From Methanomassiliicoccus sp. UBA345 (lineage in GTDB: Archaea > Thermoplasmatota > Thermoplasmata > Methanomassiliicoccales > Methanomassiliicoccaceae): a stretch of DNA of 32,000 bases. The notes below the pieces were generated by a model. That model worked only from the letters and a program-made list of their open reading frames with translations. It was not told the DNA's origin and searched no databases. A program made the position numbers and the translations under genes. Location of the stretch: assembly GCA_002504525.1 (NCBI GenBank), contig DATD01000009.1:43464-75463 (forward strand). Reading direction: 5' to 3'. Shown one piece after another: positions 20,019 through 20,285 of the stretch; position 1 is the first letter of the stretch, and every line of letters starts with the position of its first letter.

Positions 20019-20285
20019 TCACCTCTCTTCCACCGCATCGGAGAGCAGCGGACCCAGTCGGTCCCTGACCATGCCCAGCAGCTCATCGGTCCTGAAGAGG
20101 TAGATGCAGCACACCTTGCCGTCGCGCTCCTTCGTCACCACGGCCAGCTTCTCACCCGCTCGCAGATCGAGCTTTTCCCTTATATCCTTGGGCAGTACCA
20201 TCTGGCCTCTATCATCCACGCTTACTATGGCCTCCACCTTGAGCTCTTCGCGGGGGCAACAGTCATTGTTCTCTCTCCTGCTCAT
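20019..20285 (-). CDS. AbrB/SpoVT-fold small DNA-binding protein with two Cys-Cys pairs (hgcAB-associated)
   Basis: 88 aa. The SpoVT/AbrB swapped-hairpin signature is VSVDDRGQMVLPKDIREKLDLRAGEKLAVV. Vicinal cysteines are Cys9-Cys10 (20256..20261) and Cys59-Cys60 (20106..20111). The stop lies 4 nt before the hgcA ATG. Confidence 0.8.
   Translation of the reverse strand: MSRRENNDCCPREELKVEAIVSVDDRGQMVLPKDIREKLDLRAGEKLAVVTKERDGKVCCIYLFRTDELLGMVRDRLGPLLSDAVEER

Follow-up and report, generated by a model that had tools for sequence, protein, structure and literature searches.

HgcC, a cysteine-rich AbrB/SpoVT-fold protein encoded beside hgcAB and arsM, as a candidate metal(loid)-responsive autorepressor

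How the expression of the mercury methylation genes hgcAB is controlled, and what purpose these genes serve, are long-standing questions in mercury biogeochemistry, and the sole hgcAB regulator that has been tested is an ArsR-like protein of one Desulfovibrio-type strain. The question is raised again by a stretch of 32,000 nucleotides (nt) of the archaeon Methanomassiliicoccus sp. UBA345 (assembly GCA_002504525.1, contig DATD01000009.1, positions 43,464 to 75,463; hereafter the window), in which hgcA and hgcB are preceded by a small gene, hgcC, whose 88-amino-acid product carries two vicinal cysteine pairs. An original prediction, made from the sequence alone, took this protein for a thiol-based Hg(II)-sensing regulator of hgcAB or for a Hg(II) hand-off chaperone. 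We found that the HgcC family is specific to genes methylating thiophilic metal(loid)s and not to hgcAB, and the conserved DNA element that accompanies its genes makes it likely that HgcC is a sequence-specific DNA-binding autoregulator.

The HgcC family and the genes it accompanies

The 88-residue product, taken from the listing of open reading frames (ORFs) as MSRRENNDCCPREELKVEAIVSVDDRGQMVLPKDIREKLDLRAGEKLAVVTKERDGKVCCIYLFRTDELLGMVRDRLGPLLSDAVEER, matched the NCBIfam equivalog NF040962, 'HgcAB-associated protein HgcC', with 115.5 bits against a cutoff of 70 (E 7.1e-34), which bears out the mention of such a family in the original prediction. The match runs from residue 15 to residue 82, corresponding to positions 2-69 of the 70 of the model, and leaves the N-terminal cysteine tail outside. 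The AbrB/SpoVT segment that had been read from the translation was recovered by Pfam PF04014 (residues 20-57, 32.6 bits against 24.7, E 7.6e-8), by TIGR01439 (46.3 bits against 28.3), by a profile of 99 homologs that matched SpoVT-N (2ro5, 2w1t) and archaeal AbrB (5itj, 2l66) among PDB sequences, and by the fold of an AlphaFold2 monomer model. In this model, which has a mean predicted local distance difference test score (pLDDT) of 74, the N-terminal tail is coil (pLDDT 58-74), and a short helix (33-38), two strands (47-54 and 57-65) and a C-terminal helix (66-77) are predicted. Its best PDB fold matches were SpoVT 2w1t, archaeal AbrB 5itm/5itj, AbrB-N 1yfb, C68 and MazE; the matches to SpoVT, AbrB and MazE monomers have a probability of about 0.99, yet E values of 0.02-0.2. 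No match was obtained for the ArsR winged helix-turn-helix domain (PF01022 and NF033788), and no similarity to ArsD was seen in the family scans or in the fold search.

In alignments of 43 and 99 sequences (49-93% identity), C59, C60, D24, R26, G27, Q28, L31, P32, K33, R36, G44, K46, A48 and G56 are invariant, the basic loop residues R26, K33 and R36 among them. Judged from the profiles and the model, HgcC carries an AbrB/SpoVT/MazE swapped-hairpin domain and, as far as a monomer model can suggest, is most likely a dimeric AbrB/SpoVT-type transcription factor. With the solved AbrB-type homologs (2ro5, 2w1t, 1yfb, 5itj, 2l66) it has in common the N-terminal domain fold and the looped-hinge DNA-binding signature; it differs from them in its cysteine-rich N-terminal extension, in the Cys-Cys dipeptide at hydrophobic positions of the last strand, in a short C-terminal helix with an LGP motif and neither a SpoVT GAF domain nor an antitoxin tail, and in a putative operator of heptamers phased at 9 bp.

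A scan limited to a single genome for each GTDB species gave a relative in at least 589 genomes, and the best 80 loci were examined; for a second, independent set of 80 metagenome loci, divergent members of the family served as seeds. Downstream of the regulator gene and on its strand, the 80 genome loci carry an arsM-like gene in 50 cases and hgcA followed by hgcB in 29, and one ends with its contig. The corresponding numbers for the metagenome loci are 62 for arsM, 11 for hgcA, 4 contig ends and 3 others. When the two sets were pooled, arsM came next in 112 and hgcA in 39 of the 156 evaluable loci, and one or the other in 151 of the 156 in the synteny survey. The arsM-like gene encodes about 275 amino acids and starts, in most genome loci, 6-70 nt after the stop of the regulator gene; it is identified as an arsenite methyltransferase gene by NF008823 (353-363 bits against a cutoff of 263). 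Eight proteins encoded beside arsM (L005, L009, L011, L013, L022, L034, L067 and L075) scored 118-132 bits on NF040962, above HgcC of the window. An hgcAB-specific family is thus ruled out, since arsM adjoins the gene more often than hgcA does and the very model named after HgcAB gives higher scores to arsM-linked members; the gene occurs at least as often without hgcAB as with it, an outcome that the original prediction had itself named as speaking against it. The name of NF040962 holds for the window, where HgcC is a member and adjoins hgcAB, but with arsM as the commoner neighbour it is too narrow.

Another gene sometimes intervenes between regulator and target. In one of the 29 hgcA loci (L068:4147-4890), a gene for a sigma factor of the extracytoplasmic function type is inserted between the regulator and hgcAB, and in one of the three 'other' loci (L097:1398-2168) a crotonase/enoyl-CoA hydratase-like gene lies between the regulator and arsM. 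One Methanoregula metagenome-assembled genome contains two hgcC-hgcA-hgcB loci (L029 and L060, on JALOBP010000045 and JALOBP010000140) whose regulators are 87% identical, which points to a genuine duplication or else to mixed binning.

The hosts are anaerobes, namely methanogens, Dehalococcoidia and deltaproteobacteria. The genes flanking the arsM modules, among which other ars genes or an arsR were sought, are heterogeneous (pheT, aminotransferase-like, rtcA-like and one Acr3-like gene, all identified by eye only), so that the module of regulator and arsM looks self-contained; no arsA was seen among the flanking genes examined.

A tree, calculated from about 70 residues and without support values, so that no stronger claim is drawn from it, places the Methanomassiliicoccales proteins including that of the window in one clade and the hgcA-linked proteins of Methanomicrobiales in another. 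A clean division into an hgcA type and an arsM type is only partly true. In its core, the hgcA-linked protein of a Methanosarcinales locus (L006) shares 87% identity with a Methanoperedens protein linked to arsM vs 74% with the best hgcA-linked one, and bacterial members beside hgcA lie at about the same distance from the hgcA-linked and the arsM-linked classes. From these comparisons, the regulator appears to be interchangeable between the hgcAB and arsM contexts.

The gene itself and its position beside hgcA are already known. Zhang et al. (2023; PMC10349881) described a prlF/mazE/abrB-like gene directly upstream of hgcA in 39% of their hgcAB contigs and, among 31 confirmed methylators, in 8, of which 6 are archaeal, and proposed it as an archaeal hgcAB regulator. 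It is of the same family and has the same synteny with hgcA as hgcC, and is framed there as associated with a toxin-antitoxin system; the word 'cysteine' does not occur in that paper (0 occurrences), and the arsM linkage and the operator are likewise unmentioned. NF040962, for its part, is catalogued without an assigned function. That paper was the only one found to link the family with hgcA or arsM, in a search outside which most subscription journals lay and whose silence is no proof of absence; the literature searched contained no report of the arsM linkage, of the cysteine signature or of the operator.

The upstream heptamer array and the conserved cysteines

Spurious N-terminal extensions of the 'LIFLIFLK' type in the raw ORF calls drew attention to a DNA repeat in front of the family genes. 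An unbiased search for enriched 7-mers returned AATCAGA/TCTGATT, present in 53 of 77 upstream regions vs 35 of 2,362 background windows. The element is a near-palindromic heptamer, WTCWGAW, in 2-5 and typically 3-4 copies, and its spacing is regular: among 80 cases, the distance was 9 bp in 54, 18 bp in 20 and 27 bp in 2, so that 76 are multiples of 9. The exact tandem WTCWGAW-N2-WTCWGAW was found 54 times in the 110-nt windows upstream of the genes (8.4 kb in total) vs not once in the remaining 570 kb of the loci. When one mismatch at most was allowed, the tandem preceded 29 of 30 hgcA-linked and 39 of 46 arsM-linked genes, and the 80 independent metagenome loci gave the same picture (25 upstream vs 1 in 239 kb).

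The array of the window (Table 1) consists, on the plus strand, of TTCTGAT (20322-20328), TTCTGAT (20331-20337) and TTCTGCA (20340-20346), which read TGCAGAA, ATCAGAA and ATCAGAA on the strand of the gene. It is the sole match to the tandem in the 32 kb, where 0.10 would be expected by chance, and none of 100 shuffles reached two matches; no further copies of the operator, which would be a sign of a wider regulon, were found in the window.

In related archaeal loci, aagTATAAATA comes directly after the array, at the position equivalent to the TATA-like box of the window, and the array abuts the region of the transcription factor B recognition element and the TATA box, (A)AGTATAAATA. In bacterial loci it begins in or just after the TATAAT that follows TTGACA-N17, and covers the -10 box and the transcription start. 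As far as promoters read from sequence can tell, this argues for a repressor-type position in bacteria and archaea alike. Since the cis-element travels with the gene across domains, promoter architectures and both types of operon, it is most simply explained if the AbrB-fold protein that the gene encodes binds it. In one deltaproteobacterial metagenome-assembled genome (L074:3840-4000), the entire promoter/operator segment (TTGACA...TATAAATCAGTATAATCAGAATATTCTGATTAGGAGCCACCCT) occurs twice in front of an hgcA-linked regulator, as a direct repeat of about 77 bp.

The two cysteine pairs named in the original prediction, Cys9-Cys10 and Cys59-Cys60, were confirmed from the translation and the codons. 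The first lies in the N-terminus MSRRENNDCCPRE; the second lies in DGKVCCIY, which follows the segment VDDRGQMVLPKDIREKLDLRAGEKLAVV. To be more than incidental they should recur in relatives, and they do: the core pair is present in all 77 homologs from the species-level genome loci, that of the window included, and at least two cysteines are found in the N-terminal tail of 76 of these 77 and of all 76 metagenome homologs. The spacing of the N-terminal cysteines is highly variable (CC, CxC, CxC...C, CC-x5-9-CC or a single C). To cover the wider family, 1.84 billion cluster representatives were searched with a profile, which gave 943 clusters at E<=1e-3, or 354 when E<=1e-10 was required. Among 146 evaluable top representatives of these clusters, the core pair is CC in 114 (78%), xC in 20 (14%) and Cx in 4, with neither cysteine in 8, and Cys60 (92%) is better conserved than Cys59 (81%). 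Members of the family have 4-6 cysteines per monomer; at least three in total were counted in 118 of 119 close and 113 of 127 diverse members. Conservation on this scale indicates that the pairs are not chance, and the original prediction thus withstands its own first check, a possible lack of conservation of the pairs.

The hgc unit of the window

The coordinates of the features in the window are summarized in Table 1.

Table 1. Features of the hgc locus, in positions of the 32,000-nt window
Feature	Position	Strand	Description
hgcC	20019..20285	minus	88 amino acids, ATG start; AbrB/SpoVT-fold protein, first gene of the hgcC-hgcA-hgcB unit
Cys9-Cys10 codons	20256..20261	minus	N-terminal cysteine pair in the unstructured tail
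Cys59-Cys60 codons	20106..20111	minus	Core cysteine pair in the last beta strand of the AbrB domain
Predicted AbrB/SpoVT/MazE swapped-hairpin DNA-binding domain	20115..20228	minus	Residues 20-57; D24, R26, G27, Q28, L31, P32, K33, R36 invariant
hgcC-hgcA junction	20015..20024	minus	Shine-Dalgarno-like AGGTGA containing the TGA stop, 4-nt spacer, then hgcA ATG
hgcA	19043..20014	minus	323 amino acids; corrinoid protein with NVWCAAGK cap-helix motif; NF040863, 419 bits against cutoff 275
hgcB	18729..19043	minus	104 amino acids; 2x[4Fe-4S] ferredoxin, C-terminal ECC; NF040864, 109 bits against cutoff 99
Predicted membrane protein gene	18263..18685	minus	140 amino acids; 43 nt downstream of hgcB
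Putative operator	20322..20346	–	Three heptamers phased at 9 bp, 37-61 nt upstream of the hgcC ATG
TATA-like box TATTACTA	20311..20318	minus	Directly downstream of the array; putative archaeal promoter

The junction of hgcC and hgcA reads, on the minus strand, GAG AGG TGA cggc ATG AGC GAG, in agreement with the predicted ORF and its coordinates: AGGTGA is made up of the last sense codon and the stop codon of hgcC (20019-20021), the spacer occupies 20015-20018 and the ATG of hgcA 20012-20014. This leaves no space for a terminator or a promoter, and scans for terminators and sigma-70 promoters around the hgc operon gave no site above chance; hgcC is probably the first gene of this operon. The ATG of hgcB overlaps the stop of hgcA (TGATG), and by their family scores and motifs both genes are bona fide. 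On public contigs that encode an identical HgcC protein, independent gene callers give the same 88-amino-acid gene and the same 104-amino-acid hgcB; hgcA is called with 323 amino acids and a start 4 nt after hgcC on two of them, and with 331 amino acids and an overlap with hgcC on the third. Taken mechanically, the hgcA ORF of the window (19043-20086, minus strand) starts with an ATG at 20086, which would give a 68-nt overlap with hgcC; the start at 20014 is the one supported by the family model, the Shine-Dalgarno-like site and two of the three public calls.

The predicted 140-amino-acid membrane protein has no Pfam match. Its gene also directly follows hgcB in the Methanomassiliicoccales loci L001, L003 and L004 and on the public contigs, and may be a lineage-specific fourth gene of the operon. 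Further downstream on the same strand (16169-18173) lie genes for a protein related to aminoimidazole ribonucleotide synthase (PF00586/PF02769, ThiL/HypE/SelD-like) and for a radical S-adenosylmethionine (SAM) protein with a cysteine-rich C-terminal end; the former is kept after the hgc unit in L001. Divergent from hgcC, and with a common intergenic region of 106 bp, a gene at 20392-21300 (plus strand) encodes a 302-residue protein with two Lrp/AsnC-type helix-turn-helix modules. The array lies 46-70 nt from its ATG, and the divergent gene is conserved in the Methanomassiliicoccales loci L001, L002 and L021 (54-84% identity); this gene could be co-regulated with the hgc unit or could itself encode a regulator of it. 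The G+C content of the window is 62%, and among the species genomes the nearest relative, with 93% protein identity, is the Methanomassiliicoccales archaeon RumEn M1.

A regulatory role for HgcC and its alternatives

Taken together, we propose as the most likely reading that HgcC would bind the heptamer array upstream of its own gene (20322-20346) as an array of dimers, and that binding would repress the transcription unit hgcC-hgcA-hgcB, possibly extended by the 140-amino-acid gene. In numerous archaea and bacteria, the same family acting on the same operator would control the two-gene modules of an hgcC-like gene and arsM. A metal(loid) site of three or four thiolates would most likely be formed by the cysteines of the flexible N-terminal tail together with Cys60 of the core, to which Cys59 may or may not contribute; on binding of a thiophilic metal(loid) the protein would leave the DNA and the methylation genes would be derepressed. 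The signal is most plausibly As(III) or methyl-As(III), and binding of Hg(II), which would occupy any such thiolate site in vitro, is also possible. For this composite model, a thiol-based autorepressor released by a metal(loid), we regard the prospects as evenly balanced. That ligands are sensed through the cysteines at all is, on the conservation described above, a proposal we favour by a small measure, and As(III) as the specific ligand is put forward tentatively.

The regulatory half of the original prediction is strongly supported by the conserved operator array, whereas a signal restricted to Hg(II) and a target restricted to hgcAB do not agree with arsM as the commoner neighbour. Because the alternative partner is also a methyltransferase of a thiophilic metal(loid), thiol-based metal(loid) sensing is strengthened and the likely signal is shifted to an As(III)-type one; an As(III)-type signal is likelier than Hg(II) since arsM is the predominant partner and the regulator is apparently interchangeable.

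ArsR repressors offer the closest analogy. Their As(III) sites have evolved convergently at different positions and often include vicinal pairs (PMC11868830): AfArsR uses Cys95-Cys96-Cys102, CgArsR the N-terminal Cys15-Cys16 together with Cys55 of the other subunit, and the two-cysteine SpArsR is selective for methyl-As(III). The variable spacing of the N-terminal cysteines in the HgcC family would be in keeping with this pattern. In P. mercurii ND132, hgcAB is controlled by an ArsR-like protein (ArsR2) with a four-cysteine site, which responds to arsenic and whose gene is co-transcribed with hgcAB (10.1101/2022.10.17.512643). Like the ArsR/SmtB proteins, HgcC would be a small dimeric autorepressor, encoded by the first gene of arsM or hgcAB operons, with cysteine-thiolate sites that include vicinal pairs; unlike them, it would use an AbrB swapped hairpin in place of a winged helix, and its response to a ligand is a prediction. 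The surmise that the scaffold in the window differs from the ArsR-type regulator of ND132 was therefore right, the ND132 protein being ArsR-like and HgcC of AbrB fold.

Several observations weigh against the proposed model. Both core cysteines are absent from the 8 representatives mentioned above, and the protein of L021 has no N-terminal cysteine. Cys59 and Cys60 lie in the last beta strand (57-65) where SpoVT has Ile-Leu, at positions that are hydrophobic in SpoVT and AbrB. The side chains of adjacent residues in a beta strand face opposite sides. Since the two cysteines are neighbours in a strand and occupy positions that are hydrophobic elsewhere, they need not bind the same ion, and the pair may be partly structural. 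A site just upstream of an archaeal TATA box could serve activation instead, and the heptamers could in principle be bound by another factor. Moreover, the expression of hgcAB has generally not been found to be inducible by Hg.

Some of these points would suit a plain autoregulator, in which HgcC sits on the array to set basal expression, or senses a signal through its C-terminal helix, and the cysteines only stabilise the fold or the dimer: the core pair replaces hydrophobic core residues of SpoVT and AbrB, and some members are without one or both core cysteines. An N-terminal tail that is near-universally rich in cysteine, yet disordered and otherwise unconserved, is hard to explain structurally, three or more cysteines are present in 89-99% of the members, and we consider this reading unlikely. 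Equally unlikely in our judgement is a redox or iron-sulfur (Fe-S) regulator, whose cysteines would act as a disulfide switch, an Fe-S cluster or a Zn site and report anoxia or the thiol redox state. The anaerobic hosts, the four to six cysteines per monomer and the O2 sensitivity of HgcAB chemistry are what such a protein would lead one to expect; the very variable spacing of the N-terminal cysteines, however, is atypical of Fe-S or structural Zn sites, which have fixed spacing, and the target genes encode metal(loid) methyltransferases and not general anaerobic functions.

A third possibility is that HgcC is a metallochaperone or buffer whose thiols take up As(III) or Hg(II) and deliver it to ArsM or HgcAB, in the way that ArsD serves ArsA, with DNA binding absent or secondary. 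ArsD binds As(III) through vicinal cysteine pairs, a feature that speaks for this comparison, and was first described as a weak trans-acting repressor of ars genes; it has a thioredoxin-like fold and the ATPase ArsA as its partner, whereas HgcC is AbrB-like. The chaperone is further favoured by adjacency to only two enzymes, both acting on thiol-bound metal(loid)s, by the probable translational coupling to hgcA across the 4-nt gap, which suggests near-stoichiometric co-expression, and by the cysteine pairs that ArsM and HgcB carry too. However, the fold, a swapped hairpin whose basic loop residues are invariant, is of a DNA-binding kind, and a chaperone would leave unexplained the specific operator array that goes with the gene across phyla and promoter types. 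A common hand-off interface is also unlikely, since ArsM, a soluble SAM methyltransferase, is unrelated to HgcAB, a membrane corrinoid/ferredoxin pair. Given an operator travelling with the gene, the chaperone is less parsimonious than a regulator, and we hold it to be improbable; the chaperone dedicated to HgcAB that the original prediction had offered as its second option is unlikely already because the family is not hgcAB-specific.

That HgcC is an orphan MazE/PrlF-like antitoxin of type II, from a toxin-antitoxin module placed beside hgcA by chance, the reading given to the gene in PMC10349881 and echoed by source names such as 'antitoxin PrlF', is effectively excluded: the matches to MazE and PrlF models (E 1e-4 to 3.5e-3) are far under the cutoffs (NF050106, 21.7 bits against 65; NF007429, 17.2 against 125) and far below the NF040962 score, no toxin gene is adjacent in any of the 160 loci, and the neighbours of hgcC in the window are hgcA and the Lrp-type regulator gene.

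These results bear on the annotation of these genes and on the biology of methylation. NF040962 gives the name 'HgcAB-associated' to proteins encoded beside arsM with no hgcAB within about 4 kb, and could mislead surveys that use this name as a marker of methylators. The 25-bp putative operator offers a cheap experimental handle, and the family is a candidate new scaffold for metal(loid) biosensors. We judge it possible, at a level just short of even, that the HgcC family is a new class of thiol-based metal(loid)-sensing repressors on an AbrB scaffold, which places arsM and hgcAB under one As(III)/soft-metal signal. A family linked to both genes would then give arsenic and mercury methylation a second regulatory connection that is independent of the first. 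If this is true, hgcAB would belong natively to a metalloid-stress response, as the work on ArsR2 of ND132 independently suggests.

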